A DNA stretch of 33,936 bases, from the UHGV virus genome UHGV-0334900, one strand, 5' to 3'. The translations under genes and the position numbers were made by a program. Each line of letters starts with the position of its first letter. Position 1 is the stretch's first letter. Positions 1,056-31,611 of this stretch are shown piece after piece. The stretch is from a virus. The notes beneath the pieces are model-generated. The model had not been told where the DNA came from, made no database searches, and saw only the letters and a list, made by a program, of their open reading frames with translations.

Positions 1056-1526
1056 TCAGTTGGGGGTTGTAGATTTCATAAAGACCAGGAAGACGGTCTT
1101 CCCGCGGCGGTGTCCGAACAAAGGTTCATGGCTGGCCAGTTTCAGAACTTCCGCGGTTGAAACCTGATCCTCGCACCACTTGAACACCAGAACGCCGCCC
1201 GGTTCCAAAACCCGGAAACACTCCCGGAAACCGGCCTTCAAATCCTCCTGCCAAGTCTCCCTGTCCAGTTTTCCGTATTTCTTGGCCAGCCAGGACGATT
1301 CCCCGGCGTGAATCAGGTGCGGAGGGTCGAACACGACAAGGCGAAACGCCCCGTCACTGAAAGGCATGGCCCGGAAGTCTCCGACGACATCCGGCTTGAT
1401 TTCCAGAGTGCGCCCGTCGCAAAGCGTGTGTGTTTCCTCCCGGCGGTCCATGAACACCACGTCAGGATGGCGGCGGTCAAACCAGAACATGCGGGAGCCG
1501 CAGCAGGCATCAAGCACAGGCTTCAC
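1056..1526 (-). CDS. DNA amino-methyltransferase (N6-adenine or N4-cytosine), small phage-type orphan MTase
   Basis: Motif I-like LDACCGSRMFWF (AdoMet binding). Catalytic motif IV VVFDPPH (a DPPY/DPPH variant). 156 aa. Start overlaps the stop of the upstream C5-MTase by 4 nt (1523-1526). Confidence 0.7.
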   Translation of the reverse strand: MKPVLDACCGSRMFWFDRRHPDVVFMDRREETHTLCDGRTLEIKPDVVGDFRAMPFSDGAFRLVVFDPPHLIHAGESSWLAKKYGKLDRETWQEDLKAGFRECFRVLEPGGVLVFKWCEDQVSTAEVLKLASHEPLFGHRRGKTVFLVFMKSTTPN

Positions 1527-2293
1527 TTGCCCTCCTTTCCTTCTTGGAATCTGCCAAGCAAAACCCGGAATGCAGTTGCCGCCACTGCAGGAACTTGCCC
1601 GTTGCCAAGGGCTTTAAGCTCGTCCACTTCTGGGGCCACCCCATCATCAGGGCGGCGAAAGACGCTGACACACACATCCCCCTGACTCGCTTCCCACCGC
1701 TCCTGACATAGAGATATGCCAAGTAATCTTCCAAATTCCCTTTTGGTTTGCCTTCCTCCGCTCTCTTCCAACACAGTCCATGTTTGGCGATACATGCACG
1801 CATGGTGGGCAAGAATCCATATTCTGGCTCGATGATGGGGTAATCCAACGGCATCAGCTCCCAGCACACACCATTCTGCATCGTACCCGATTTCGGCAAG
1901 ATCACCGAGGACTCTGGCAAGTCCTCGTCCCACAAGCAAAGGTGAGTTTTCCAGGAATGCGAATTCCGGTCGTATTTCATTGATAATTCGGTGCATTTCC
2001 CGCCAGAGGCCGGAGCGGGCGCCGTCAATGCCGGCGCCTTTTCCTGCGGCTGAAATGTCCTGGCACGGGAAGCCTCCAGATACCACGTCAACAAGGCCGC
2101 GCCACGGTCGTCCGTCAAAGGTGCGTACGTCATCCCAAACCGGGAAAGGCGGGAGTAAGCCGTCATTTTGTCGGGCGAGCAGTACGCTTGCGGGATAGGG
2201 TTCGAGCTCGACGGCGCAAACAGTGCGGAATCCGAGCAGCGAGCTGCCAAGTATGCCTCCACCAGCGCCCGCGAAAAGATGTAGCTCATTCAC
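1523..2293 (-). CDS. DNA (cytosine-5)-methyltransferase
   Basis: Motif I LFAGAGGG (FxGxGG). Motif IV GGFPCQDIS (the PCQ catalytic Cys). Motif VI FLENSP (ENV). A GTG start at 2293 overlaps the TGA stop of 2290..2616 (GTGA coupling). The alternative frame 1510..2289 has none of these motifs. Confidence 0.85.
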   Translation of the reverse strand: MNELHLFAGAGGGILGSSLLGFRTVCAVELEPYPASVLLARQNDGLLPPFPVWDDVRTFDGRPWRGLVDVVSGGFPCQDISAAGKGAGIDGARSGLWREMHRIINEIRPEFAFLENSPLLVGRGLARVLGDLAEIGYDAEWCVLGADAVGLPHHRARIWILAHHACMYRQTWTVLEESGGRQTKREFGRLLGISLCQERWEASQGDVCVSVFRRPDDGVAPEVDELKALGNGQVPAVAATAFRVLLGRFQEGKEGK

Positions 2294-9673: not shown

Positions 9674-10861
9674 ATGGCAGGCATCATCAAACGCAATAAC
9701 AAATGGGTGGCCGTCTTCCGCTCCCTGGACGGCAAAGAGCTTCGGAAAACCACCGGCATCGACGTGGTTCCCAAGGCTCTGCTTCCGGGAGCCAATAAGA
9801 AATCAATCATGTCCCAGAATGAAGCACGGGCGCGGCTGGTGGCCCAGGAGATGGAGAAAGAAGCCCGGTACGGGGTTTTCGACTTGGACAAGGTGAAGGC
9901 CATTGCCGGGGACCAGGCCGGCGTGCTGAAAGCCACCATGAACGGCATGACGTTAACCCGGTTCCTCTTTGACTGGCTGGACGGGAGGAAAAACAAGAAG
10001 CGGGCCTATGAGCGGGACGGCATGGCCGTCCGCAGGCTTCTGGCGTTCCTGGGGGACCGGCGGAATATGCCGCTGGCCGCCCTGAATAAAGGGATGGCGA
10101 AGGATTTTGTAGAAACGGAATTGGAGCGCGTTTCCGCCGGAACCGTCATCCGCTATGTGTCCACGCTCTCCACCGCGTTCAATGCCGCTGTAGACCGGGA
10201 GATTCTTCCCCGGAATCCGTTCCGGGGCGTCATGCCTTCCCGGGCGGACCACCAGGCGGAAAAGCAGCTGCGCGGCGCGTTCACGATGGAGGAAGTGAAT
10301 ACCATCATTGAACGGTTCCCGGATGAATGGCCGGATCTGGTGCGGGTGTGCCTCTACACCGGAGGCCAGCGCCTTGGAGACCTGGCGACGCTGAAATGGG
10401 AGCAGATTGACCTGAAGCACTCCTTCCTGTTCATGACCACGCAGAAGAGCCGGCGCCGCATGAACAAGCCGATCATCCAGCCCTTGAAAGAGGTTCTGGA
10501 AAGGCGTCTGCTCAACCGGGTGAATGATTACGTGTTTCCCCTGTCTGCGCTTCGCCATGCCCATGCGGGAGGGCGTTCGGACAAGCTTTCCACGGAGTTC
10601 ACGACATTGTTGAAAACGTACGGAATCATCCGGGAGATGCCCGGGGAAGTGAGAGGCGACCGGCACCGTCTTTCGGAAAAGAGCTTCCACAGCTTACGGG
10701 CGACCGCCGTGACCGTCCTGCGCCTGGCAGGGGTGTCCCCGGATTTGTGCCGCTTCATTGTCGGACACGACTCCGAAGAGATTGAGCGGGTGTATTTCCG
10801 CCCGGATTCGGCGGACGTTCAGGATGCGATGAGCAAGATTGCCGTCGGCTTGGCCCGTTAG
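9674..10861 (+). CDS. int: Tyrosine recombinase / phage integrase
   Basis: Catalytic-domain residues R in QRLGDLATLKWEQIDL, HSLRATAVTVL (the H-x-x-R box), and HDSEEIERVYFR (tyrosine nucleophile region). Preceded by a SAM-like N-terminal domain. 395 aa. Confidence 0.9.
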   Translation: MAGIIKRNNKWVAVFRSLDGKELRKTTGIDVVPKALLPGANKKSIMSQNEARARLVAQEMEKEARYGVFDLDKVKAIAGDQAGVLKATMNGMTLTRFLFDWLDGRKNKKRAYERDGMAVRRLLAFLGDRRNMPLAALNKGMAKDFVETELERVSAGTVIRYVSTLSTAFNAAVDREILPRNPFRGVMPSRADHQAEKQLRGAFTMEEVNTIIERFPDEWPDLVRVCLYTGGQRLGDLATLKWEQIDLKHSFLFMTTQKSRRRMNKPIIQPLKEVLERRLLNRVNDYVFPLSALRHAHAGGRSDKLSTEFTTLLKTYGIIREMPGEVRGDRHRLSEKSFHSLRATAVTVLRLAGVSPDLCRFIVGHDSEEIERVYFRPDSADVQDAMSKIAVGLAR

Positions 10862-11658: not shown

Positions 11659-13803
11659 TTAAGCTGGTCCGTAGGGGTAGAAGGTTCCTCCGAAGACGGG
11701 TATCTGGATCATTCCCAGCGCGTATTGCGTCACCTGGTCGTCTTCGATGTCGGCTATCAAAAAGGAATAGTCGAAGTTGACACCCGGTTTTTCTTCGGCC
11801 AGCCTGATAGGATAGACGGTCCCCGGGATGCCCGAGACGTCAACGCCCGTCAATTTGGCGTCCTGGTCGAAGTGGACGTTGAGCCATACTTCCCCGCTGG
11901 TTTGGGGGATCGTTACCCACGAGGAACCGGAACCGCCCCCCTGCGGGTATTTGCCGAGCAGCGAGCCGTTCAGGTAGAGCGCGCCGGGCTTCATTTGCGC
12001 CCCGGTGATGGCCCCCTCCGTATCTTTCTGCAAGCGCACTTGGAAGCCGTATTCCGGCGCGGGCGTGGATTCTCCCGTGGATTTGGTGATGTGCTGGCTG
12101 ATGGTGGGGGATTCCGGCTTGGGGTCAAAGCCGTATTCCGTCGATTCCGGCGCCCCCTGCATGTTTTCCAGCGTGGAGGATCTGCGTGACGTGGCATTCA
12201 CGCGCTTCAATTCTACCCATTCTTCAATCCCCAGTTGTTCCGGCGCGCCGTAGGACAGGGAAATCACGTTGGTCTGCAGGTCTCGGCTCACCGTCTGAAT
12301 CATGGTGTTGATGTTCTGCCAGGCGGGGTTGCCTCCCAGCAGCGAGACGCGCCGGCCCATGTATTGCCGCGTCTGCGCTTCTCCCAGCGCGACAAAGGAA
12401 ATAGAGCCGTCCCAGGGCAATTCCTGCATGGATTCCCACACCGTTTTGGCAATGTCCCCATAGGGCACGCCTTCCGAGGGTTGGGGCGATTCCCCTTCTT
12501 CCGGCCCGTTGGAGGGCTGTTCCCCGTTGTAGATGCCGTCAATGGGGTAGCTCGCGTAGGGGCGGTCCATGGTGACCAGATCCACCGAGAATTCTTCCCA
12601 GAAGCAGGGCACGCCTCCCAGCGTTCCCACATTTTTGAATTTCTCCCTCCACTTGGCAGGCGCGCTTTCCGGGATGGCGAGACGCTGCTTGACGGTAGCG
12701 TTGCACCATTGCGGGCGGAGGGATTTGGTATGAATTTGCCCGTCCGTCAGTTCATAGCCTGTGGCGGAGGTGTTGTAGCCTCGCGGCTTGTCTTCCTCCG
12801 TTCCGTCCCAGGGCTTCCCGGTGATGGTCGGATCCTGGTCATAGACGGCGATGGACCCTACATCTTTCATCCACGGGAAATGATGTTGCCAGAAACTGTT
12901 GATCATGTCGTTCTGGTCAATCCTGGTCCCCGTCACTTTCATGCGCTGGTAGGACAGGCTGCCGGCCCTGGTTCCCTGCACCGGCTGCGGATCTTCTACC
13001 GGCTCCCCCGTAGAACTGTATTTGGAATAAAAGAAGTCTACTGACGTACGGTAAACAATGGAGTGCGGCAAGGTCGGGTCCCCGTCTTCCGGGTATTTGG
13101 ACAGGTAGGAGACGCGGTAGCCGTTGCTTCCGGTCGTTTCCGCGATAATCGCCACGCAGGGCGGAACGAGGTCGCCCCGGGGGATCAGGGAGACGTCCAT
13201 GGACTTGACCGTCGCCGTCGGCTGCAAGGGAAGCGCAATGGGCGTCAGGGCGTCATAGTCCGTGATGATGAGCTTGGGGCGCGCTTCGCTGTAGTCGTAG
13301 TACGAGACCATCCGGGGCGACCAGCGGCGGATGGATTGAAGGAGGCTTCCCAGCGTATCGCAGGAGGCGTTCCACGGAATCAGCATCTTGTCATCGCTGA
13401 TGCGCAGCTCGTAGTCCGCCGGGTGGTGCTTGGCGAGATTCAGCACCCGGGAGAGTGCGGAAGAAATGCTTATCTTGGGGATGATTCCGTCCCCTCCGCT
13501 GACTTTATTCCACATGGAAAAGACCGGCTTCCATTCGGAATCCAGCGCAAAGCAGTTGTCCAGCCAATACCAGGGATCGGAAAAGACGATTTTCCAGGCA
13601 CGGGATGAGCCGCTGTAGGTCTTTTCGATGCTGGAAACGAGGCCGGAAAGAATGGTGTTCCCGTTTTGGGAGATGGTGACGGTATCGAACTGTTGGAAGG
13701 GCAAGACCTCCCCCAGCGTGCGGACGGGATAAACCGCGGTGATGGCGGAGGCGGAAAAGCTTTGCTGGTCGTGGGTCAGGCTCGACGGCTTGAGGGCCAG
13801 CAA
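11659..13803 (-). CDS. Large distal tail / baseplate-hub protein (Dit/Tal or host-specificity J-like)
   Basis: 714 aa, immediately downstream of the tape-measure block. Rich in Gly/Pro/Trp and beta-rich segments. C-terminal Gly-rich stretch QGGGSGSSW. Confidence 0.5.
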   Translation of the reverse strand: MLALKPSSLTHDQQSFSASAITAVYPVRTLGEVLPFQQFDTVTISQNGNTILSGLVSSIEKTYSGSSRAWKIVFSDPWYWLDNCFALDSEWKPVFSMWNKVSGGDGIIPKISISSALSRVLNLAKHHPADYELRISDDKMLIPWNASCDTLGSLLQSIRRWSPRMVSYYDYSEARPKLIITDYDALTPIALPLQPTATVKSMDVSLIPRGDLVPPCVAIIAETTGSNGYRVSYLSKYPEDGDPTLPHSIVYRTSVDFFYSKYSSTGEPVEDPQPVQGTRAGSLSYQRMKVTGTRIDQNDMINSFWQHHFPWMKDVGSIAVYDQDPTITGKPWDGTEEDKPRGYNTSATGYELTDGQIHTKSLRPQWCNATVKQRLAIPESAPAKWREKFKNVGTLGGVPCFWEEFSVDLVTMDRPYASYPIDGIYNGEQPSNGPEEGESPQPSEGVPYGDIAKTVWESMQELPWDGSISFVALGEAQTRQYMGRRVSLLGGNPAWQNINTMIQTVSRDLQTNVISLSYGAPEQLGIEEWVELKRVNATSRRSSTLENMQGAPESTEYGFDPKPESPTISQHITKSTGESTPAPEYGFQVRLQKDTEGAITGAQMKPGALYLNGSLLGKYPQGGGSGSSWVTIPQTSGEVWLNVHFDQDAKLTGVDVSGIPGTVYPIRLAEEKPGVNFDYSFLIADIEDDQVTQYALGMIQIPVFGGTFYPYGPA

Positions 13804-13854
13804 GTCATTGATGGTGATGTCGTGGTTCCTGCTGTTTGTAAAATGGTTAGTTGT

Positions 13855-18051: not shown

Positions 18052-18587
18052 TTACTGGTTGAGGTAGTCCTTCACCCCTTCCGCAATGGCTTCGGCAATG
18101 CGGAAGGGATGGTCCTTCAAGATAGAGGCGTTTTCAGGATTGGTGATGAAGCCGCATTCGCACAGCACCCACGGGCAGCGGGTCTTTTTCAGGACGGCCA
18201 GTCCCGGGCGCGACTGCACAGTGTTGGCCCGTCCGGGCAGCAACCGGGAAAGAGGTTCCGCGATGCATATGGCAAGCCGGCTCCCTTTGACGCTTCCCGG
18301 GTAGAAACATACATGGGCGCCATGAGCCTGGGGATTGTCGGACGAATCGCAATGCAATGAAATTCCGAAGTCATAGCCTCCTTCGTTGGAGGCCTTGATG
18401 GTAGCGTTCAAGTCCTGGGCATTGGTCATCTTCGGGTAATCAATCACATCCACCCTGGCTCCCAGCCGTTCCAGCATGGGGGCGAGGCGTTCCGCGATCG
18501 TCGCCGCGACGGCGTGTTCTTCAAGCCCGTTCCCGCGGGTTCCAGTGTTGTTGGCGTGGCCTATATCAATGGCTATTTTCCTGATTA
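18052..18587 (-). CDS. N-acetylmuramoyl-L-alanine amidase (Amidase_3) endolysin. The true start lies upstream of the track ATG at 18477
   Basis: Conserved IAIDIGHANNTGTRGNGLEEHAVAATIAERLAP, containing the first zinc-ligand His, is encoded in frame at 18575-18478. An AAAGGAGA Shine-Dalgarno sits at 18595-18588. There is no ATG/GTG/TTG between the TAA at 18596-18594 and 18477; ATA 18587, ATC 18584 or ATA 18575 are the only candidates. The downstream part has the ISLHCDSS and GFITN Amidase_3 blocks. Confidence 0.7.
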
Positions 18588-18796
18588 TTCTCCTTTAATG
18601 GTTGATTGTTAATATGATTGAACTTGTAAGAAAAACTTTACAGTTGGTCAGTAGTCCGCTCATCGGACGAACACAAGGCTAGCAATGGGGAAGCAGAACG
18701 CGGCAATGCCCGCCGCCGTGTCTCCGCAAGCGGCAAAAACGCCGGCCATCACGCACCCCATCAGCGGCAAAAGAACGGAAGGATTCAGCAGCTTAT

Positions 18797-19093
18797 TCAC
18801 TTTTCCAGTTTCTTTTCTATGTTTTCGATTCGGACGGCAAGCAGTTGGATCGCCTTGGCGGTCTCCACCTGGGCTTGTGTCTGCATGGTCATCAAATCAC
18901 AAAGGCGGTCATTGTGGTGACCCATGACGTCCCCGATGTACCAGCAGGCAGCGCCGCAAATGGCCAGCGAGAGCATGACGCAGGCCCAGGCGGGGAAAGC
19001 CTTGGCGAAGTCGAAGAAACGGGCCGGTACTTCGGAGAGCTTACACATGGTCTTATTTCTTGGAGGGGATGACCTGCACGACGGGCGGAACAT
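18797..19093 (-). CDS. Single-TM protein with C-terminal coiled coil (class-III-holin-like or i-spanin-like); likely starts at internal ATG 19048
   Basis: FAKAFPAWACVMLSLAICGAACWYIGDV TM helix followed by the helical segment QTQAQVETAKAIQLLAVRIENIEKKLEK. It overlaps the upstream gene in another frame and lies just upstream of the endolysin. Confidence 0.4.
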   Translation of the reverse strand: MFRPSCRSSPPRNKTMCKLSEVPARFFDFAKAFPAWACVMLSLAICGAACWYIGDVMGHHNDRLCDLMTMQTQAQVETAKAIQLLAVRIENIEKKLEK

Positions 19094-19340: not shown

Positions 19341-19745
19341 TTATTGTTTAGTGAAATGCTTGAAAAACTCCACGGCGGCGGGTTCCGTGATGATAAAAGC
19401 CGGGTAGTCCGAGGCTGTAAAAATCCTGCGACCTTTTGTCTCCGCATGGACGGCTTCAACAGTCAAAGACACTGCATCAATCAGTGTATAGGTTCCGTCT
19501 TCCGCAAGGGTCAGGGCATTTTTCCCCAGCCTTGCCCACACCTGAACAGCCTGCCACGGCTCCGACAATCCCACCAGCGCGGCAACGACGGCCTGCATGG
19601 CCGGTGCCTGCTCCGCTGGTATCTCGTCCTGATTAAAGCGGGCCGGAGGTCTATAACCGCCCTTGTCCTGATAAATGGGCGTCAGGGTGAATTCATCCCA
19701 CTGTCCCGGCTGGGGGAACTGAATCTGTATCTCTGCATTATTCAT
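19341..19745 (-). CDS. Hypothetical protein downstream of the tail fibre (candidate fibre assembly chaperone)
   Basis: 134 aa. Start overlaps the tail-fibre stop (ATGA coupling at 19742-19745). Confidence 0.3.
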   Translation of the reverse strand: MNNAEIQIQFPQPGQWDEFTLTPIYQDKGGYRPPARFNQDEIPAEQAPAMQAVVAALVGLSEPWQAVQVWARLGKNALTLAEDGTYTLIDAVSLTVEAVHAETKGRRIFTASDYPAFIITEPAAVEFFKHFTKQ

Positions 19746-21682
19746 GATTCTAAAGGCACGTTAATATCTTCAAAAGCCGCGGTTGCTTCGGATTCAACAG
19801 CATTGGTTCCTATCGCGTCCAACCCGTAGAAAACCGGGTTGATATTCCCCGGCTGATAGTAGGCATATTCGCCGGGCCCGGCGTAAACCGAAGCCGTTCC
19901 GCTGGTGGTGTTGATCACGTCCGTCACCCACCTGGAAACGCCGACGCCGATCTCAAAATTGGAGACGCCGCGGCAGGTGGCGATTTTGTACAGGTTATTG
20001 GTTTGCCCTCCCGTGACCATCAGCCATAGGCCTCCCAGGTTTTCATAAACGCTGCTGTTGGCAACCGTCTGCTGCTGGTAAATAATCTTGAAGACCGTCC
20101 ACGGTATGGGCTCGTTCTGCGTCGCGGGAATAAAGCTGGTCGTCGTCTTGACCTGCCACCCATCCGTGGAGTTGAGTGCGTAAATCTCACGTACGCGCAC
20201 CGTATAGCCGTTGCGGGCCGTGTCTCTCACATTGTCAAAGGTGATGTCCAGAATCTCTCCGGAATTAAAGGCCAGGTCATTCCCCGGAATGATCGTGTAG
20301 GAATCCGTGGTGAGGTCCGTCCTGATTGTTTTCGCCCCGCGCCCGATGCCCATCGTCACCTTCGCGGCTGCAGTGGCTCTCCAGACAAACGAAAAGCCGG
20401 CCCATGAAGAATAATTCCATTGGGAAGAGTGGCCTTCAAAGGGAGCCTGAATGGTGGTGTGAGCTCCCGAGGGAATACCGATGCGGGCCATCTGCCAGGG
20501 AACCGTTTTAGTAATTGTCGCCGTCCCGGTCGTGGACAGGGAGTCCGTATTCAGAAATGCGCCGGCCGTATAAATATTGGCCGCGCCTCCCATTCCTGCG
20601 GCATAAAGCCGGTTGACGCCGGATTCGCTGGTGGGAGCGCCCACAGCCAGCGGGACATTGATCCCGCCATTGGCGTTGACGGTGCTTGAAAACGTGGACG
20701 CCCCCGCGCAGTTGAAGCTGGCGCCCTGGGAAATATTCAGGATGCCGGTCTCTACCATGAATGTCCCCCGCAACCATCCGCCGTTCCTCACATCAAGGGA
20801 CTGCCAAAATCGCGTGATGCCATAAAACTGATTACCAGTCCCCGCGCTAATGGTTCCATCTGGCCGCCCTGCGATAAGTGGTCCGTTAATGGTAGCCGAT
20901 TCAGCGGTCAGGGCGCCTCCGATGTTGACGTCTCCGACGTTGGACGTCAGCGTCCCGGGCTCTCCCTTTTCCCCTTGCGGTCCCTGGGGTCCTTCCGGAC
21001 CTTCCGGGCCCTGGGGGCCCTCCGGGCCTTGAGGCCCCGCCGGTCCTGTATCTCCCTTCGGTCCCTGCTCCCCGGTTTCGCCCTGCGGCCCGCGTTCCCC
21101 GGTTTCGCCGCGTGGACCTTGCGGCCCTTCGGGGCCGGTTTCTCCACGTTCACCCTGCGGGCCTGACGGTCCCTGAGGACCAACATCCCCGCGGGGAATC
21201 GTGAAATTGAGCAGATAGTATCCCACTTCGGACCCCTTGACGGCTTCCGCGTTGGCGGGCGTCCCCGGTTCCCCGGTGGTGACCTGACCCACGGACAGAT
21301 TAAAATTCTCGGCGTACTTTTTGGCCTGCTCCGCGTACCAGGCGGCGCTGGACGCGTTGTCAAGCATGACCTGCACGCAGCCGCTTCCTTCCGGAAGCTG
21401 CACGACGACCGCGCCCGCCACGGCCTGCTGTTCGTCCGGCAAGTCCGGCGTCACCCGGCCCGAAGAAACAAAGCGTCCGTAGAGGAGCGGGCTTTCCTCG
21501 CTGCCGTCGTCCATGAAAACGTCATAGGACCACATGCCCGCGGGAACCGAAGCCCAGGAAATTACGCCGTTGCCCTCGTCATCGCGTGAAAAGCCGAACT
21601 CGGCGACGCCTGTCTTGAGACGGACAGCTCCGCGCAGGGTGACGCCGCTCATATCGACGGGATCGCCCTGAAAATCCACCAC
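19742..21682 (-). CDS. Tail fibre protein with collagen-like triple-helix repeat region
   Basis: About 26 uninterrupted G-X-Y triplets ([76 protein letters not shown]) at residues about 166-243, which corresponds to 20954-21187. N-terminal virion-attachment region and a 400-aa beta-rich C-terminal receptor-binding-like region. Confidence 0.7.
20954..21187. repeat. GC-rich (GGNCCN)n collagen-triplet DNA repeat within the tail fibre gene
   Basis: Visible periodicity of cccttgcgg/ccctggggg/ccttccgg units. It is coding, not a CRISPR array. Confidence 0.6.
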
Positions 21683-21796
21683 GCGGACGACCAGCGACTG
21701 GTTCAGCCCCGTGACGGTCCGGATATCGTATTTGCCTGCCTGCTGCCTGGGAAAAAAGAGGATGCGGGGGCGCAGCGCGCCCCCTGGTGAAACGCG

Positions 21797-22354
21797 TCAG
21801 GAACCCGGAGTCGGCGTCACGTCCTGCACATTGGAGGGCGTGAACTGGTACTTGCCGCGGTAATCCATTTCGAACTCGAACTGTGGTGAAGCAATCGCCG
21901 TGGTGTGCTCAGGGTCCTGCAGCAGGCGCAAGGCGCCATGCGCCGTTCCGACCAGATAGATCGTGCCGACGTCGTTTTGGTACCAGAAATGAAGATACCC
22001 TTCGATCTTGTTGTCGCCGCCATGTCCGACGGTGGTCGATTCCTCGCCATTAGCGGGAGGCGCTCCCAGGGCGAAAGACAGCTGGAACCATTCGGGAGAC
22101 ATGTCCGGCGTGGTGAAGGTCATCCGCTTTCCGGTCGTCGTGTTCTTGCGCTGCTGGCGATATCCCAGCGCGCCGCCGTAAAAGCGCGTCACTTCCCCTT
22201 CGACCTGGGTGGCAACGGATTGGAAAGCCCCCAAAAGCCCGAAACTCACCCAGGGCTGTTCAGGCCCGGCGGTCGGATCCGTTGGCGGAGACGTCGGAGG
22301 CGTCGGAAACTGGTCCGGCCCGGTGACGTAAGAAGCTCCCTCGTCTTCGGTCAC
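21797..22354 (-). CDS. Phage structural (tail) protein; the reading frame remains open 48 codons upstream of the GTG start
   Basis: 185 aa from GTG at 22354. The same frame is open to TAA at 22501-22499 with no ATG/GTG/TTG. Pro/Thr-rich N-terminal linker followed by a beta-rich domain. Confidence 0.4.
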   Translation of the reverse strand: MTEDEGASYVTGPDQFPTPPTSPPTDPTAGPEQPWVSFGLLGAFQSVATQVEGEVTRFYGGALGYRQQRKNTTTGKRMTFTTPDMSPEWFQLSFALGAPPANGEESTTVGHGGDNKIEGYLHFWYQNDVGTIYLVGTAHGALRLLQDPEHTTAIASPQFEFEMDYRGKYQFTPSNVQDVTPTPGS

Positions 22355-22461
22355 CTTGATGCCGTCGGGGAGGAAAATAGCCAGAACGCCGGTAATCTGC
22401 GGCGTTACGTTGCGGTTGGTAAAGGTGGGATCGTATGTAGTAGCCCTGATGCTTGAAGCGG

Positions 22462-25711: not shown

Positions 25712-26452
25712 TTAATCGCCGGTGGCCGTCGCGTCGATGCGGACGATGGCGCCGGGGTTGGTCAGCTTGGTCAGCGAGTAGACGCGGTTGGTGACGAGCG
25801 TCAAGGCCGGCGTCGGCTTGTATTCGGTGATGACTTCTCGGCGAAGCTTGCCGGAAAGCCCGAAGGTTTTGACGGCGGAGGCATCGAACTGCGTCGGGGA
25901 GTCTTCTTTGTACAGGACGTAGACTTCGTTTTCCATGATCGTCTTCGCGTCGCCGGAAGCGTCGCGGTACGGCATGGACGCGATGTAAATATCCCGGATA
26001 GGACGGATCAGAGCCATGCGAAGAAGGTCTTCGTTGAACAGGCCGACGCTGTTGAAGGAAACCACCTGACGCGCGAGCGTGTTGGAGCGAAGCAGCTGCC
26101 ATGCGTTGATGCCGAAGACAATCGTGTTCGGCATGTGTCCGGTTGCGGCATTGATGGACAGGATCGCCTGGTCCAGATCCGCCAACGGGTTTTTCTGCTG
26201 GTTGGCCCAGTCGCCCATCCCGGAAGCGGCCGGAAGCTGGCTCATCAGAAGCTTGGCGCGTTCGTATTCGTACGACGTCACAAACTGGGATTCGATGAGT
26301 TTGTATTCCGCCAGGGTGATGGCCTGCGCCTTTTCCCGGTTGACGCCCAGCAAGGCGTCAGGGATGGGCAGCGTCAAGCCGTAGCCCTGAAGGGTGTCGG
26401 TTTCGTTTCTGCCGCGAAGGACGGTCTGGCGGGGAGGTTCGCCCGGTCCCAC
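25712..26452 (-). CDS. Major capsid protein (possibly longer; its frame is open 73 codons upstream of the GTG start)
   Basis: Position after the protease/scaffold and decoration genes, size and beta-rich composition. 246 aa from GTG at 26452. The same frame has no stop back to the TAA at about 26656 and no canonical start in that stretch. Confidence 0.55.
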   Translation of the reverse strand: MGPGEPPRQTVLRGRNETDTLQGYGLTLPIPDALLGVNREKAQAITLAEYKLIESQFVTSYEYERAKLLMSQLPAASGMGDWANQQKNPLADLDQAILSINAATGHMPNTIVFGINAWQLLRSNTLARQVVSFNSVGLFNEDLLRMALIRPIRDIYIASMPYRDASGDAKTIMENEVYVLYKEDSPTQFDASAVKTFGLSGKLRREVITEYKPTPALTLVTNRVYSLTKLTNPGAIVRIDATATGD

Positions 26453-26672
26453 CTGGATGGGCTGGACGGTGAAGGCCGATTCCGTGTCCCAGACCTTGTA
26501 CTGGAAATTCAGGTCATAGACCGGGACGATCGGAGCGATGCGGCTGATGATGGAGTTCTCTTCGGTGTTCCCGGACCCCGCGGAATAGGAGGTCAGGACA
26601 TCGGTGAACTGAACGGCGGAGCAAAATGGAGTAGCCCTTGTTCTTGGTCTTTCTGTTGGTTAGGGTTAATAG

Positions 26673-27126: not shown

Positions 27127-28239
27127 TTAACGTTGGGCGGAGACGATGAAGCCCTCTTCGGTCGCCTTCTGGTAGGCGTCATAGCGCTTCATGCCTTCCT
27201 TGATGAGTTCGTTCACACGGTTGTTGAATCCGTCAATGGATTCCTTCTTGCGGAACGGATCAGGGGGATTCAGCGTCGCGCGGCGGTTCAGAGGCGTCCT
27301 TTGCGGAAGCTTCTTCTGCTCCGGCTGCTCCTGTTTCTGCGGGCCCGCCTGGCGGTTGAGCGCGCGGATAAAGGCGTTCAGCGCGGCGGGGCTTTCCCGG
27401 AGAGAGTTTTTCAGCTCTTCCCGGCGTTCTTCCGTGAATTCCTCGCGTTCTTCCTCGTCCAGCGCGTTTTCGTACGTGCTGACGGCGTCGTCCACTTCGG
27501 CGTTCACGTGGTCTTTCTCACGCTTTTCCAGCGAGAGCAATTCATCAAGTCGTCCGAGGATCGCCCTGCTCATGTCGTCGGTGCCGTCAAATTCGACATC
27601 CAGCTTGTCAAGCAGGGAATCGAACAGGGCCCGCTGGGCCTTGTCCATTTCCTTGGACGGATATTCTCTATCGTCGTTGTCCATATTGGTGTTCTGGGTT
27701 GTTTCCCCCTCTTCGGGGCTTTTGGGTTCGCCCCCGACCTCGTCGGAGGCGGGGGAAGTCTGTCGGTTGACCAGAGGCCGCTTTCCCTTGATGCGTGGAC
27801 GGTTGGTCAGGGCAAAGCCGGTCAGGCGTGACGGTCGGTAAACTCCGTCCGTCAAGGTCATCCCTTCGCCATATTCGGTGGATGATTGCGTGTATTCCTT
27901 GTCCTGCAGCATCTTTAGGCCGCGCGGCGTCCATTCAATGAACCCGTAGAGTTCTAGCGTGCCGGAAGGGTCGCGGTAGGTGTCCAGCCTCTTGAGCCAT
28001 CCGAGGGCCCGAGTGTCGCGGGAAAGGTCGTGGCTCAGGTGGTCGCCGTCGATGAGCATCCCTGGGCCGTCAAAGGTGCGGTCGTTGAAGTCGTCCACCA
28101 TGTCCTGGACGGCCTGCTCGTCGATGCGCAGCACGGCGGGTCCTTCGCCGTAGTCGACGTCATGGTCTCCGCTCTTCTCGACGTGGAACCAGCCGTTGGC
28201 GGGTCGGGACAGGTCATTGATTTGTTTCGTACTGATCAT
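27127..28239 (-). CDS. Mu gpI-like prohead protease fused to scaffold
   Basis: N-terminal ANGWFHV...LIDGDHLSH...RALGWLKRLDTYRDPSGTLELYGFIEWTPRG matches the Mu-like prophage I protein (protease) pattern. The C-terminal 200 aa is a highly charged coiled coil (EEEREEFTEERREELK) typical of scaffolds. Confidence 0.65.
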   Translation of the reverse strand: MISTKQINDLSRPANGWFHVEKSGDHDVDYGEGPAVLRIDEQAVQDMVDDFNDRTFDGPGMLIDGDHLSHDLSRDTRALGWLKRLDTYRDPSGTLELYGFIEWTPRGLKMLQDKEYTQSSTEYGEGMTLTDGVYRPSRLTGFALTNRPRIKGKRPLVNRQTSPASDEVGGEPKSPEEGETTQNTNMDNDDREYPSKEMDKAQRALFDSLLDKLDVEFDGTDDMSRAILGRLDELLSLEKREKDHVNAEVDDAVSTYENALDEEEREEFTEERREELKNSLRESPAALNAFIRALNRQAGPQKQEQPEQKKLPQRTPLNRRATLNPPDPFRKKESIDGFNNRVNELIKEGMKRYDAYQKATEEGFIVSAQR

Positions 28240-29662
28240 CGGTAAATCCTTTCATGAGGCCGGCGTAAATCATTTGCTGCAGCTGTTCATAGGCATCGGG
28301 CGGAATGAGGGCTTTTTCCGGCTCCCTGTTGGCCGCCGCCGTCACCGGAATGGGGTCCCGCGTGTCCTCGATCGACATGCCGATCTTTTCTTCGATTTCG
28401 GTCTTCTCGGGGCGGACGCCTCCGTCGGCAAGCGCGGCGATTTCCTCGGCCTTCTGCAGCGGCGTCTGGACGGTGTCAAAGGTGATGTGGAGGCGGGCCA
28501 GCGGTTCGCCGTCTCCCAGGACAAGCGGGCTGATGGCGGTGTTAAAAGCTTCGGCTACTTTGGAGCAGACCGCGGAGACGACCGAATTCCAGCTGTCCGT
28601 GTGCGCTCCCCCGGCCAGCGTGCCGGAGCCTGATTCATTCAGGACGGTCAGAGTGCCGGCCATGACAAACCGCACCTGGTCCTTGTCGGACATGTTGATT
28701 CGGGACAGGAAATAGTTTTCGTTGATGTTGGAGGCTTTCAACGGTTCTGCAGTGCAGCCGGGAGGCAGCACGATGGAGGCTCCCGATTTGAGTTCCTCGC
28801 ACGCTCGTTGCAGCGCGACCATGATGTCGGGGCTCGCGTCCTTCGGAGCCGTGATGATGGCCGGGGCGCTCCCGTAGCGGTCCATGTGATTGTCCCAGGT
28901 GACTTTGGCGTGATTCCGCTCAAAAGAGGCGCGGGTTGCCGGGAAAAGAATGGGGTTCCGGTGCTCCATGACCACGAGCGTTTCATCTTCCACGCTTTCG
29001 CCGGTGTCGACGCCGATGTAACATTGAGGGTTAAACTGCCATTCGTTCAACTCTCCGGGGCGGACCCAATAGCGTTGGGGGATGAATTCAAAGCGGCGGC
29101 CCCAGGCGTCCTCAATGTATTGGAGGTGGGCGTAACCGTAAAACATGGCGGAAGCCAGCTGCCCAAAGGCCTGCTGAAGTCCGGTGACGGAGTGATAGAA
29201 TTCTTCCAGCGCGTTTTGCTGACGCTGGGCTTCGGGGCTGTCGTCCGCCGCGTCAATCTTCCAGCCCTGCATGGAGACGCTTTCGATAAGCCGGGAATAG
29301 AGCATGCCCAGGAGACCGTCCGAGTAGATGACCTCGTCCCAGATGAGCATTTGTCGGGCAAAAGCTCCCCGCCGCGCTTCGTTCCGGGCGTCAATCAGGG
29401 TTTGCAGGTCGGCTCCCTGTAACGGATCCCAATATTCAAACCATTGGGGCTGGTTGGGCTTCCTGCTCTGTTCCGTCAAGGCTCGCCGGGTGAGTTCCGT
29501 TTCAAGCTCCTTGATTCTGGTCTCCTGTTGGGCGACCAGCTTCGGGGCGTTGAGGATATTTTTGACGGCGTTAAACCTGAGGCTAAAGAAAAGGTGGTTG
29601 CAGGGGAAGGAGTTGGACCTTCGATTCAGGGACAGGAACCCCGCGTGATACCGTTTCACCAC
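28214..29662 (-). CDS. Portal protein (Mu gp29/DUF935-like)
   Basis: 482 aa between TerL and the protease/scaffold. Overall resemblance to DUF935 portals. The N-terminal 30 aa are low-complexity and the true start is uncertain. Confidence 0.6.
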   Translation of the reverse strand: MVKRYHAGFLSLNRRSNSFPCNHLFFSLRFNAVKNILNAPKLVAQQETRIKELETELTRRALTEQSRKPNQPQWFEYWDPLQGADLQTLIDARNEARRGAFARQMLIWDEVIYSDGLLGMLYSRLIESVSMQGWKIDAADDSPEAQRQQNALEEFYHSVTGLQQAFGQLASAMFYGYAHLQYIEDAWGRRFEFIPQRYWVRPGELNEWQFNPQCYIGVDTGESVEDETLVVMEHRNPILFPATRASFERNHAKVTWDNHMDRYGSAPAIITAPKDASPDIMVALQRACEELKSGASIVLPPGCTAEPLKASNINENYFLSRINMSDKDQVRFVMAGTLTVLNESGSGTLAGGAHTDSWNSVVSAVCSKVAEAFNTAISPLVLGDGEPLARLHITFDTVQTPLQKAEEIAALADGGVRPEKTEIEEKIGMSIEDTRDPIPVTAAANREPEKALIPPDAYEQLQQMIYAGLMKGFTDDQYETNQ

Positions 29663-29715
29663 CCTGCGATTAATTACATATCTTCATATATTGATACGTT
29701 GATATATTGTCAACC

Positions 29716-31062
29716 CTAATATCTCCCGTAAGCGCGTTTTGATGACACGGGCCGGGCGTACCAGGCTCCCAGCGTCCGCGCCAGTCCGCTGTTCCGGCGC
29801 GCGTGCCAGGCCATCACAAGGGCGTCGGCCCGGTCAGGGGAACGAACGCCCCGCTTTGCCATATCTTCCTTGCTTTCAATGCGGACGCGGCCTATTGCAT
29901 CCGTCTGGAGCCGCGGCGCGACCAGCTGTTCAATCGTGTCCTCGTCAATGTCGAGGATGAGTTCTTTTTCCTCAATGGCGCGCGCCAGGGCCCGCCATGC
30001 CTGGGCTCGCAGATTGACAAAGGCTTGTGTGTCATCCGCCGGAAACCCGCCGCGGTAGGAGTGCACCGGAAAGCCCTCGGCGCGGAAGTCATCAATGATG
30101 GGGAGCCCTAGGCCGTCGCCGTCGGCAAAGATGCGGTCGGCAGAGATGCCGAGTTCGGCGGCCTTCCGGCGGAAACGTCCGCGCGCTCCTACGGTGTCCG
30201 GGTCGGACCAGTGGTCGGCGATGAAAAAACGGTTGCCCTGCCCGGCCGCAAAGACGTTTTCATCGCCTCCCGCGGCAAAGTCGAAGCCGCCGCAGGTCTC
30301 TCCGGTGTCCAGGAAGGGAGGCGGGTTGTTGACCAGCTCCATGAGAGCGCGGCGGGAAATGACGGATTGTCCGTCAAGGTCGGTGAATTCACCAAGGATG
30401 GCCGAGCGGTAGAAGGAGGACTGCTCACCATATTCTTTCTTCAGGCGTTCGGCCTTGCCCGGGTCGTTGATTTCGATGTGCGGGCAATCCTCGTATTTGA
30501 CGCGGATTTTGTAGTAGAGCGATGAATTTTTGTGAAAGCAGTCGTAGAAGGTGCCGGAATCGGCGCCCGGCGACGAGGTGATGAACGCGTGAAAGAGCGT
30601 GCAGCGGGAAACGGCGGTGAAGATGGAGTCCGGAATGGTTTTGGCCTCGTCCAGGACGTAAAAGACAGGATCCACGTCGGGCGAGATTTTTGGATGCCAT
30701 CCTTCCGCACGTCCCGCGTTGTCGGTGGAGAAACCCACGGCAAAGCCTCCCTCCGGCGTGCGGATCTCCGTCTTGTTGAAGGTCCAGCCGGAAAAGAAAG
30801 GATTGTCCATGTAGCGGCGGAGCGCGGGAAAGAGCTGCTTTTCCACCTGCATCCACGATGAGGACGTAACGGGGACCTGTCCCCGCGGAAAACAGGTGAG
30901 AAAGTACAGGATGGCGGGAGCGATGCAGTTGCTTGTCTTGCCGGATCCGTTAGGAGCGACCAGAGCCACGCTTTTCCCTCCCAGGGTCAGCTTGCCCAGG
31001 GACAACGCCTTGATGGCCTCCACCTGCCATGGATAGGGGTCAAGGCGGAGGATATGGCGCAA
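29716..31062 (-). CDS. terL: Terminase large subunit
   Basis: Walker A VALVAPNGSGKT. Walker B/catalytic VFYVLDEA. A C-terminal RNaseH-like nuclease region with conserved Asp residues. 448 aa. Confidence 0.85.
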   Translation of the reverse strand: MRHILRLDPYPWQVEAIKALSLGKLTLGGKSVALVAPNGSGKTSNCIAPAILYFLTCFPRGQVPVTSSSWMQVEKQLFPALRRYMDNPFFSGWTFNKTEIRTPEGGFAVGFSTDNAGRAEGWHPKISPDVDPVFYVLDEAKTIPDSIFTAVSRCTLFHAFITSSPGADSGTFYDCFHKNSSLYYKIRVKYEDCPHIEINDPGKAERLKKEYGEQSSFYRSAILGEFTDLDGQSVISRRALMELVNNPPPFLDTGETCGGFDFAAGGDENVFAAGQGNRFFIADHWSDPDTVGARGRFRRKAAELGISADRIFADGDGLGLPIIDDFRAEGFPVHSYRGGFPADDTQAFVNLRAQAWRALARAIEEKELILDIDEDTIEQLVAPRLQTDAIGRVRIESKEDMAKRGVRSPDRADALVMAWHARRNSGLARTLGAWYARPVSSKRAYGRY

Positions 31063-31095
31063 GAAGAAGCTGACGGGGATTCGTGTCCTGACGGG

Positions 31096-31611
31096 TTAGG
31101 GATGGAGTTTGCCGGCGATGGTTTCCAGAGCGGTTTTCTCGTCTTCCTGCAGCTGGGCGAGCTGCTCAGGGTCCAGCGTGATTTTCCGTTCCAGCGGCGC
31201 TCCGGGAACGCCGGCGACGTCCTGACGGACCCGGTCTCCGAATTTATCAGGAGCGAAGCGGGCGGCGACTTTCAGCCGGGTTTCAATGGCGAGCTTCTTC
31301 GCGGCGACGGAGGCGGAGCCGCATTCCGGGTCAAGGGCGACTTTCGCGGCTTCGTCGGCCAGCTCCTGGCAGGCGTCAATCATAGCTTCCGACTGCGCTT
31401 CCCGCGCGCGTTGAATGAGTTTGGAAAACTCCGGCTTTGTTTCACGCCAGTTCCAGACCGTCCAGACCTCCGGCATGTGGTCATCGGAGCAGATGGATTT
31501 CATGGTTTCACCGTCGGCCAGGCGGGAGGCTATCTCGGCAGCCAGTTCCTCTGTGTAGAGGCTCGGCCGCCCCGGTTTTCTTTTGGTGGTAGGTTTATTT
31601 TTCCTGCGGTT
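31096..31611 (-). CDS. terS: Terminase small subunit. The conserved N-terminus lies upstream of the first ATG (31503) without a canonical in-frame start
   Basis: KRKPGRPSLYTEELAAEIASRLADGETMKSICSDDHMPEVWTVWNW...AREAQSEAMIDA...RLKVAARFAPDKFGDR matches a widespread TerS family (GRP.kYTpEl...Ic.rla.GeslrsIc.d..mP..stvf.W...ArEaqAdalade). The GRP..YT block is encoded at 31578-31560, 5' of the ATG. Confidence 0.6.
   Translation of the reverse strand, partial: NRRKNKPTTKRKPGRPSLYTEELAAEIASRLADGETMKSICSDDHMPEVWTVWNWRETKPEFSKLIQRAREAQSEAMIDACQELADEAAKVALDPECGSASVAAKKLAIETRLKVAARFAPDKFGDRVRQDVAGVPGAPLERKITLDPEQLAQLQEDEKTALETIAGKLHP

Follow-up and report, generated by a model that had tools for sequence, protein, structure and literature searches.

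AGG as a proposed start codon for late genes in an Akkermansia phage genome encoding an initiator-type tRNA(CCU)

In the virus genome UHGV-0334900, a stretch of 33,936 nucleotides (nt) referred to here as a whole as the window, the gene for an endolysin, an N-acetylmuramoyl-L-alanine amidase, carries AGG at the position of its start codon, and a tRNA gene in the late region encodes an initiator-type body with the anticodon CCU. Judging from sequence, the likely explanation is that AGG serves late genes as a start codon by virtue of this phage initiator tRNA(CCU) and that the amidase starts at the AGG at 18582-18580 of the minus strand. We also think it probable, though with somewhat less assurance, that a widespread temperate phage of Akkermansia muciniphila has in this way naturally expanded its set of start codons, the tRNA(CCU)/AGG pair locking the late programme at the level of translation; the first residue of the proteins concerned may then not be Met (formyl-arginine is one possibility), and this would make it the first non-Met initiation system of natural origin in bacteria.

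The start of the endolysin gene

When the minus-strand frame of ATG 18477 was translated, it proved to be open upstream as far as an in-frame TAA at 18597-18595, the open stretch encoding RRIIRKIAIDIGHANNTG..., and no in-frame ATG, GTG or TTG was found between this TAA and ATG 18477 on the minus strand. The first-pass annotation of this DNA, made from the letters alone, had reported such a gap without a canonical start over the catalytic N-terminus of the amidase, and this is borne out. Its coordinates were all one base low (the TAA is at 18597-18595, the Shine-Dalgarno (SD)-like element AAAGGAGA at 18596-18589 and the catalytic block IAIDIGHANNTG, which lies inside the gap, at 18576-18541 of the minus strand), and its statement that no ATG, GTG or TTG occurs there in any frame does not hold in full, since TTGs in other frames are present at 18569 and 18524 near the amidase 5' end. 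With the protein read from 18582, the Pfam profile Amidase_3 (PF01520) matched over profile positions 1-173 of 174 at residues 3-171 (E=8.5e-30; 104.5 bits against a gathering cutoff of 27), and the N-terminal (I/V)DxGH block was covered only with the AGG 18582 start. A start at ATG 18477 gives a form of 141 amino acids (aa) that has lost 35 residues, the DIGH histidine among them. Because the match from 18582 is nearly full-length, the 35 residues upstream of Met-18477 belong to the enzyme; the earlier suggestion that this block is needed and translated is thus upheld, the N-terminal codons also being under selection, as described below.

To place the start, we made the comparison with orthologous amidases that had been proposed as a check. 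Akkermansia phage DTMo-2021a (CP084202.1) is 84-92% identical to the window over most of its length, and the amidase 5' regions align without gaps, reading AAAGGAGAATAATC AGG AAA ATA GCC in the window and AAAGGAGAATACTC ATG AAA ATA GCC in DTMo-2021a (in a shorter alignment of the same start, ...GGAGAATAATC AGG AAA ATA GCC and ...GGAGAATACTC ATG AAA ATA GCC), i.e., the two start codons are one T-to-G change apart. Since the ATG of DTMo-2021a aligns with codon 18582-18580, 7 nt after GGAG, this codon occupies the start position. Exact-pattern scans of genome and viral contigs for the amidase start region returned no match, the spacer being variable; a protein-guided scan of IMG/VR gave 56 loci. 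Among the close relatives that share the upstream region, AGG stands at the amidase start in 21 contigs and ATG in 12, the latter being DTMo-2021a and 11 others in which ATG stands exactly at the AGG position, and the more distant amidases (44-67% identity) all have ATG there. The AGG alleles lie behind three different spacers (AATAATC, AATACCC and AATATCC). In the amidase gene tree, an ATG clade separates two AGG clades, and a single ATG allele sits within an AGG clade; therefore, at least two switches between ATG and AGG have occurred.

The single T-to-G difference from DTMo-2021a, together with the 141-aa protein called by public pipelines, could also be read as start loss in a decaying prophage that leaves the lysin a pseudogene or a truncated product. 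We regard this as highly improbable. AGG is the majority allele, the AGG alleles span 19% nucleotide divergence with an open reading frame (ORF) of 176 or 193 aa intact in all but one, and the ratio of non-synonymous to synonymous substitution rates (dN/dS) between them is 0.14 at dS 0.66. The first 34 codons, which a start at ATG 18477 would forfeit, show 9 synonymous versus 2 non-synonymous differences between AGG alleles, and essential genes for head and packaging also carry the AGG in every relative, a deposited phage genome among them. By this pattern of substitution, the N-terminus is translated and under purifying selection in the AGG alleles, so that neither a dead gene nor a sequencing error can be their origin. 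The one damaged allele among the 33 close relatives (IMGVR_UViG_3300045988_154619) has a single-base deletion a few codons past the AGG that breaks the amidase frame.

An ATG misread as AGG during sequencing, base calling or assembly, which had been raised at first pass as a possible error, has nothing to recommend it beyond the oddity of the codon itself, and its probability is close to nil: the same calls recur in independent assemblies, comprising IMG/VR contigs from many metagenomes, a metagenome-assembled genome (MAG) in GTDB, a GenBank phage record and complete A. muciniphila genomes, and other ATG starts, including those in CATG contexts, are intact.

AUU, AUC and AUA are known as rare bacterial starts, as in infC, and the first-pass annotation had favored initiation at such a codon. 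Three are in frame here (ATA 18588, ATC 18585 and ATA 18576), could be used by the host initiator tRNA, and stand behind a good SD. Their distances from GGAG, however, are 1, 4 and 13 nt, against 7 nt for the AGG, and ATC 18585 is replaced in relatives by CCC, TCC, CTC or TAA; no AUU, AUC or AUA conserved at an SD-compatible spacing, as an infC-type start would have, was found at the amidase start. With the ATG of relatives aligned exactly at the AGG, and with no conserved codon of this kind past the upstream stop in the genes for the small terminase subunit (TerS), large terminase subunit (TerL), portal, capsid and tail fibre, we consider such a start very unlikely. The recurrence of AGG in place of ATG at seven other late genes, taken with a phage tRNA of anticodon CCU and initiator features, instead points to cognate, dedicated initiation at AGG, distinct from leaky near-cognate initiation by host tRNAfMet.

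Some further features of the locus are recorded here. ATG 18661-18663 (minus strand) overlaps the TGA of the small gene upstream and begins an ORF of 22 codons, in frame with the amidase and ending at the TAA at 18595-18597. Readthrough from ATG 18663 past this TAA into the amidase was considered and rejected, since the stretch is not conserved as coding in DTMo-2021a and the relatives all start close to the SD; the conjunction of this ATG with the upstream stop is probably due to chance, its surroundings not being conserved in DTMo-2021a. The AT-rich spacer of about 60 nt on the 5' side of the amidase (18598-18659, minus strand) is near-identical in DTMo-2021a though the flanking genes differ, and a promoter-like TTAACA-17-AATAAT at 18612-18584 (minus strand) overlaps the amidase SD. 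Directly upstream, 18660-18800 (minus strand) encodes a 46-aa hydrophobic protein with a GTG start in the window and an ATG start in DTMo-2021a, which may be a holin or spanin.

AGG at the 5' ends of other late genes

We aligned each late-gene 5' end with DTMo-2021a and listed the in-frame start candidates. The suspicion voiced at first pass that late genes lacking canonical starts form a genome-wide pattern proved well founded, as a canonical start is missing at the true 5' end of seven further late genes, those for TerS, TerL, portal, capsid, a 216-aa protein, tail fibre and a 723-aa protein (Table 1). The same layout recurs in all seven: an in-frame AGG stands a few codons past the upstream stop, and the first canonical start follows 9-62 codons later. 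At six of the seven starts, the AGG is invariant, each time in 6-15 distinct flanking contexts among relatives. The codons on both sides vary, those following the TerL AGG, for example, being ACA CGA, CCA TAC or AAC CAT. Late genes that start with ATG keep ATG across relatives. If AGG starts are assumed, the intergenic gaps come to 6-77 nt, except for the gap that holds the tRNA.

Table 1. Coordinates of the amidase start region, the AGG-start late genes, the tRNA and the element next to it
Feature	Coordinates	Strand	Remarks
In-frame TAA closing the amidase frame upstream	18595..18597	-	From translation
Shine-Dalgarno-like AAAGGAGA	18589..18596	-	GGAG = 18593-18590, 7 nt before AGG; kept in relatives with AGG or ATG start
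AGG, proposed start codon of the endolysin amidase	18580..18582	-	Aligns with ATG of DTMo-2021a; AGG in 21, ATG in 12 close-relative contigs
Endolysin coding sequence (CDS), N-acetylmuramoyl-L-alanine amidase	18052..18582	-	176 aa from AGG; Pfam Amidase_3; PHROG endolysin families
TerS (small terminase subunit) CDS	31096..31605	-	AGG 31605; invariant in 11 flanking contexts
TerL (large terminase subunit) CDS	29716..31089	-	AGG 31089; PHROG_2; invariant in 14 contexts with divergent flanks
Portal CDS	28214..29578	-	AGG 29578, just 3' of the tRNA; Pfam Portal_Mu; invariant in 15 contexts
Major capsid protein CDS	25712..26638	-	AGG 26638; invariant; PHROG_1005 from residue 13
216-aa late protein, function unassigned	21797..22447	-	AGG 22447, 14 nt past stop of preceding small gene; invariant in 13 contexts
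Collagen-repeat tail fibre CDS	19742..21748	-	AGG 21748; Pfam Collagen, PHROG tail fibre families; invariant in 10 contexts
723-aa late protein	11659..13830	-	AGG 13830; also AGG in DTMo-2021a, sole relative covering the site
Phage tRNA, anticodon CCU, initiator-type body	29595..29668	-	ARAGORN; Rfam tRNA 50.8 bits; between TerL and portal
Conserved AT-rich element (GTTGACA, 17 nt, TATATG, then GATATGTAAT)	29669..29720	-	Adjoins tRNA 5' end; kept in nearly all relatives

Judged by Pfam and PHROG profiles, TerS, the capsid protein and the amidase would each be cut short within a domain if the first canonical start were used. In TerS, positions 1-105 of Pfam Sf6_terminase match at residues 17-128, and the first ATG is residue 35. 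In the capsid protein, the PHROG_1005 match begins at residue 13 and the first canonical start (a GTG) is residue 63; all 36 capsid loci from relatives match from residue 2, and none of the 36 has Met there. Other candidates fare no better: the TTG at 31062 downstream in TerL is CTC in DTMo-2021a, and GTG 29662, which the ORF finder chose for the portal, falls within the tRNA. The 723-aa protein probably starts at AGG 13830 but is the least certain case, with a TTG 9 codons downstream. Early and regulatory genes use ATG or GTG, as seen for the replication protein, methyltransferase, exonuclease, RecT, anti-repressor and integrase.

We then compared AGG at starts with AGG inside genes. AGG makes up 0.46% of internal late-gene codons and 8 of 25 start positions (binomial p ~2e-13). 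Of 23 internal AGG codons, the window and DTMo-2021a have only 9 in common, CGN or AAG standing in place of the others, and among 5710 aligned codons there is no internal exchange of ATG and AGG; replacement of a start AGG by CGN was seen in no relative. On these substitution patterns, AGG at the start position does not evolve as an arginine codon. AGG is also the core of AGGAGG, and most of these genes have no other obvious SD, so that it might serve as a minimal SD element for a start a few bases downstream. This we hold to be exceedingly improbable, given that the AGG is in frame in 8 of 8 genes (chance probability 1.5e-4), that no ATG, GTG, TTG, ATA, ATC or ATT is conserved 5-10 nt downstream of it in TerL, portal, capsid, the 216-aa protein or the fibre, and that the amidase AGG is exchanged for ATG and has its own GGAG 7 nt upstream.

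Several candidates and oddities among these genes deserve mention. An AGG start for the DNA methyltransferase at 1541 was rejected in favor of GTG 1526, which has AAGGAGG ahead of it. A frameshift between the overlapping ORFs from 25692 and 25711 was likewise discarded, the second gene starting at ATG 25219 and overlapping the stop of the first. ATG 19093 (minus strand), the assumed start of a 98-aa gene, is ACG in three relatives, and the true start of that gene is probably elsewhere, e.g., at ATG 19048. At 21755-21800 (minus strand), immediately before the tail-fibre AGG, is a G+C-rich hairpin GGGGGCGCGCTGCGCCCCC with a T-run after it, resembling an intrinsic terminator within the late gene array.

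The phage tRNA(CCU) and its proposed role

ARAGORN and Rfam found a single tRNA in the window, at 29668-29595, and DTMo-2021a likewise has one, with anticodon CCT. Its sequence is CGCAGGG UG GUGA AACGGUA UCAC G CGGGG UUCCUGU CCCUG AAUC GAAGG UCCAACU CCUUC CCCUGCA ACCA. In bacteria, initiator tRNAs are told from elongators by an unpaired C1xA72, G2:C71, C3:G70, A73 and the pairs G29-G31:C39-C41. The phage tRNA has the C1xA72 mismatch, G2:C71, C3:G70, A73 and an encoded CCA, and its anticodon stem CGGGG/CCCUG contains three consecutive G:C pairs, G29:C41, G30:C40 and G31:C39. Its acceptor stem is that of E. coli metZ (tRNAfMet) except for pair 4:69, with G2:C71, C3:G70 and A73 identical.

Related contigs yielded 17 distinct sequences of this tRNA. 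Position 1:72 is CxA in 17 of 17, never paired, while all 20 stem pairs are paired throughout and 8 of them show compensatory double changes, acceptor pairs 4:69 and 7:66 included; G30:C40 is invariant, and one variant has G2:U71. The anticodon was CCT in 42 of 42 IMG/VR contigs, and in one GTDB genome, matched with a pattern in which the anticodon was left free. The tRNA is present in every related contig that reaches its site, and it is found together with the AGG starts in every contig that covers both. A C precedes the AGG start in 68 of 76 contexts. Pairing of G37 with this C(-1), an idea modelled on the A37:U(-1) pairing in E. coli (PMC10018350), found no support, as there was no covariation and C is kept at -1 in phages with A37 in the tRNA.

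By ARAGORN, the tRNA is classed as Arg(CCT). Conceivably, then, it is a normal elongator tRNA-Arg(CCU) providing for a rare codon, and AGG is read inefficiently at starts by host tRNAfMet, throttling the late proteins. The anticodon CCU with its C35 and the absence of A11:U24 suit such a role, codon-supplying phage tRNAs are common (PMC10264068), and native initiators are slightly promiscuous, AGG included, according to earlier work cited in bioRxiv 10.64898/2026.04.16.719103. Even so, we judge this account unlikely. It leaves the C1xA72 mismatch, invariant while neighbouring acceptor pairs covary, and the tRNAfMet-type acceptor stem unexplained, and the phage tRNA does not look like E. coli argW, a tRNA-Arg(CCU), which has G1:C72, A20 and A37; the corresponding positions of the phage tRNA are CxA at 1:72, U20 and G37. 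Internal AGG is 2.4-fold rarer in late than in early genes (4.6 versus 10.8 per 1000 codons, p=0.0014), the opposite of what codon supplementation predicts, which makes supplementation unlikely. Nor does an elongator explain why the tRNA accompanies the AGG starts wherever both are covered, and the abundant capsid and portal proteins fit badly with a start that wild-type initiation rejects through IF3 (PMC6868393).

We therefore return to AGG as a start codon read by the phage's own initiator. Under the proposed mechanism, tRNA(CCU) would be made from the late region, and its C1xA72, tRNAfMet-like acceptor stem and anticodon-stem G:C pairs would cause it to be handled as an initiator, i.e., formylated, delivered to the P site by IF2, accepted by IF3 and bound poorly by EF-Tu. 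It would then pair cognately in the P site with an AGG placed where a start belongs, as with the amidase AGG behind its GGAG. Formylation and P-site initiation are what we infer from the tRNA body; the amino acid carried might be Arg, Met or another. Eight late genes, for packaging, head, tail and lysis, would depend on tRNA(CCU), so that their translation would be tied to its expression and AGG-start genes would be translated only when it is present. As for a regulatory purpose, the unusual start may control lysin output via the availability of the phage tRNA. The AT-rich element next to the tRNA contains ATATC/GATAT inverted repeats and may be its promoter or operator. That a CCU initiator can initiate at AGG is feasible, since an engineered E. 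coli initiator tRNA with this anticodon works with AGG starts, giving the largest induction of 12 pairs in 5 of 6 strains and overall the highest expression, its induction ranging from 35- to 402-fold over the six strains (bioRxiv 10.64898/2026.04.16.719103).

A number of observations weigh against this proposal. All 17 tRNA variants have U11:A24 rather than the A11:U24 conserved in bacterial initiators; the tRNA has G37 and an odd T-loop, UCCAACU; and some variants keep two of the three G:C pairs (two with A29:U41, two with U31:G39). As for charging, ArgRS uses A20 and MetRS the CAU anticodon, and the phage tRNA has neither. Initiator tRNAs carrying basic amino acids are also reportedly poor substrates for formylation. 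Upstream of the tRNA, the TTGACA-N17-TATATG element did not pass a strict sigma-70 consensus scan. Finally, TerS and TerL lie upstream of the tRNA and yet use AGG starts, which makes it hard to see how the timing would work. As to the T-loop (~29611-29617, minus strand), its position 55 is C instead of the nearly universal U (pseudouridine), which a few variants do have, and the D-loop is short, at 7 nt.

Spread, significance and known systems

The only GTDB representative with this tRNA is an A. muciniphila MAG, on a 283-kb contig in which CCGC AGG TTT AAC, the portal start, follows the tRNA. In exact look-ups, public gene calls were the truncated forms, on 93 to >1000 contigs that include complete A. 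muciniphila genomes. Thus, the truncated 141-aa amidase is on 93 public contigs, with close variants on 505 and 146; the truncated 135-aa TerS is on at least 1000, among them complete A. muciniphila genomes and a 32.8-kb record labelled plasmid; and the truncated 246-aa capsid protein is also among the calls. The near-identical TerS on that 32.8-kb A. muciniphila 'plasmid' is BBP49621.1, and its presence on such a record suggests an extrachromosomal form. The window itself looks like a complete, circularly permuted phage genome of ~34 kb, with the integrase (9674-10861, plus strand) in mid-window and the early and late genes around it all on the minus strand. At 1056-2289 (minus strand), two adjacent overlapping ORFs match DNA methyltransferase families, the downstream one only over profile positions 51-203; this methyltransferase may be split or rearranged.

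The start codons of bacteria and their phages are taken as fixed: AUG, GUG and UUG, read by tRNAfMet. A natural dedicated AGG initiator tRNA, if confirmed, would break this rule and would be the counterpart, at the opposite end of the gene, of stop-codon recoding in phages. It would amount to a new viral gate on late and lysis genes, or to genes that are unreadable without the phage tRNA, and would offer synthetic biology a ready-made orthogonal initiation part, engineers having independently found CCU/AGG to perform best. In hundreds to thousands of public Akkermansia and virome records, these genes are cut short by gene callers restricted to ATG, GTG and TTG, and the tRNA is given an Arg label by software. 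The combination of a 1:72 mismatch, GGG:CCC, a non-CAU anticodon and genes with missing starts gives a signature that can be searched for in other phages. The host species is of medical interest, and the deposited phage DTMo-2021a makes experiments feasible. In the literature on start codons, initiator tRNAs, Akkermansia phages and phage recoding, we found no natural initiator tRNA for a codon outside the AUG family, with coverage incomplete and earlier work possible; reassignment of AGG as a start was found described only in engineered systems.

Among known systems, phage elongator tRNAs, which supply codons or evade anticodon nucleases (PMC10264068), resemble this case in having a tRNA gene in the phage late region, here typed by software as tRNA-Arg(CCU). 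Unlike them, the phage tRNA has a 1:72 mismatch and an initiator acceptor stem, lacks A20 and A37, and goes with lower internal AGG use in late genes. The AUU start of infC and the GTC start of sigR (PMC5472188) share with it a start other than ATG, GTG or TTG and a likely regulatory consequence; those cases, however, involve mismatched pairing of tRNAfMet, IF3 control and single genes, whereas the phage would use a cognate, dedicated tRNA for a codon that differs from AUG at the second position.

A closer parallel is stop-codon recoding in gut phages (PMC10879173, PMC11210395), in which a codon likewise takes on another meaning through a phage tRNA, the dependent genes are late, structural and lysis ones and annotation is systematically wrong; there, the recoding has been suggested to help time the lytic programme (PMC10879173, PMC11210395). 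In the present case, the start signal would be reassigned and the tRNA is of initiator type, so the relation is one of analogy, not membership. No in-frame stops (table 11) were found inside the late ORFs of the window, and its only tRNA reads AGG.

With E. coli tRNAfMet (metZ/W/V/Y), the phage tRNA shares C1xA72, G2:C71, C3:G70, G5-G7:C66-C68, A73, G29-G31:C39-C41 and the D-loop 3' half GGUA; it differs in having CCU instead of CAU, U11:A24 instead of A11:U24, A4:U69, G37, a shorter D-loop and the T-loop UCCAACU. The nearest counterpart is engineered orthogonal initiation (bioRxiv 10.64898/2026.04.16.719103), related designs being an amber initiator tRNA(CUA) (bioRxiv 10.1101/2024.07.29.605542) and others (PMC11744186). 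Both it and the phage combine an initiator-type body, a CCU anticodon and an AGG at the start behind an SD. In the engineered system, the gene is silent without the special tRNA, as the AGG-start genes of the phage would be. Unlike the engineered i-tRNA(CCU), the phage tRNA is no point mutant of tRNAfMet, having a different D arm, G37 and an unusual T-loop, and the phage system is natural, phage-encoded and evolutionarily conserved, and would serve eight late genes.

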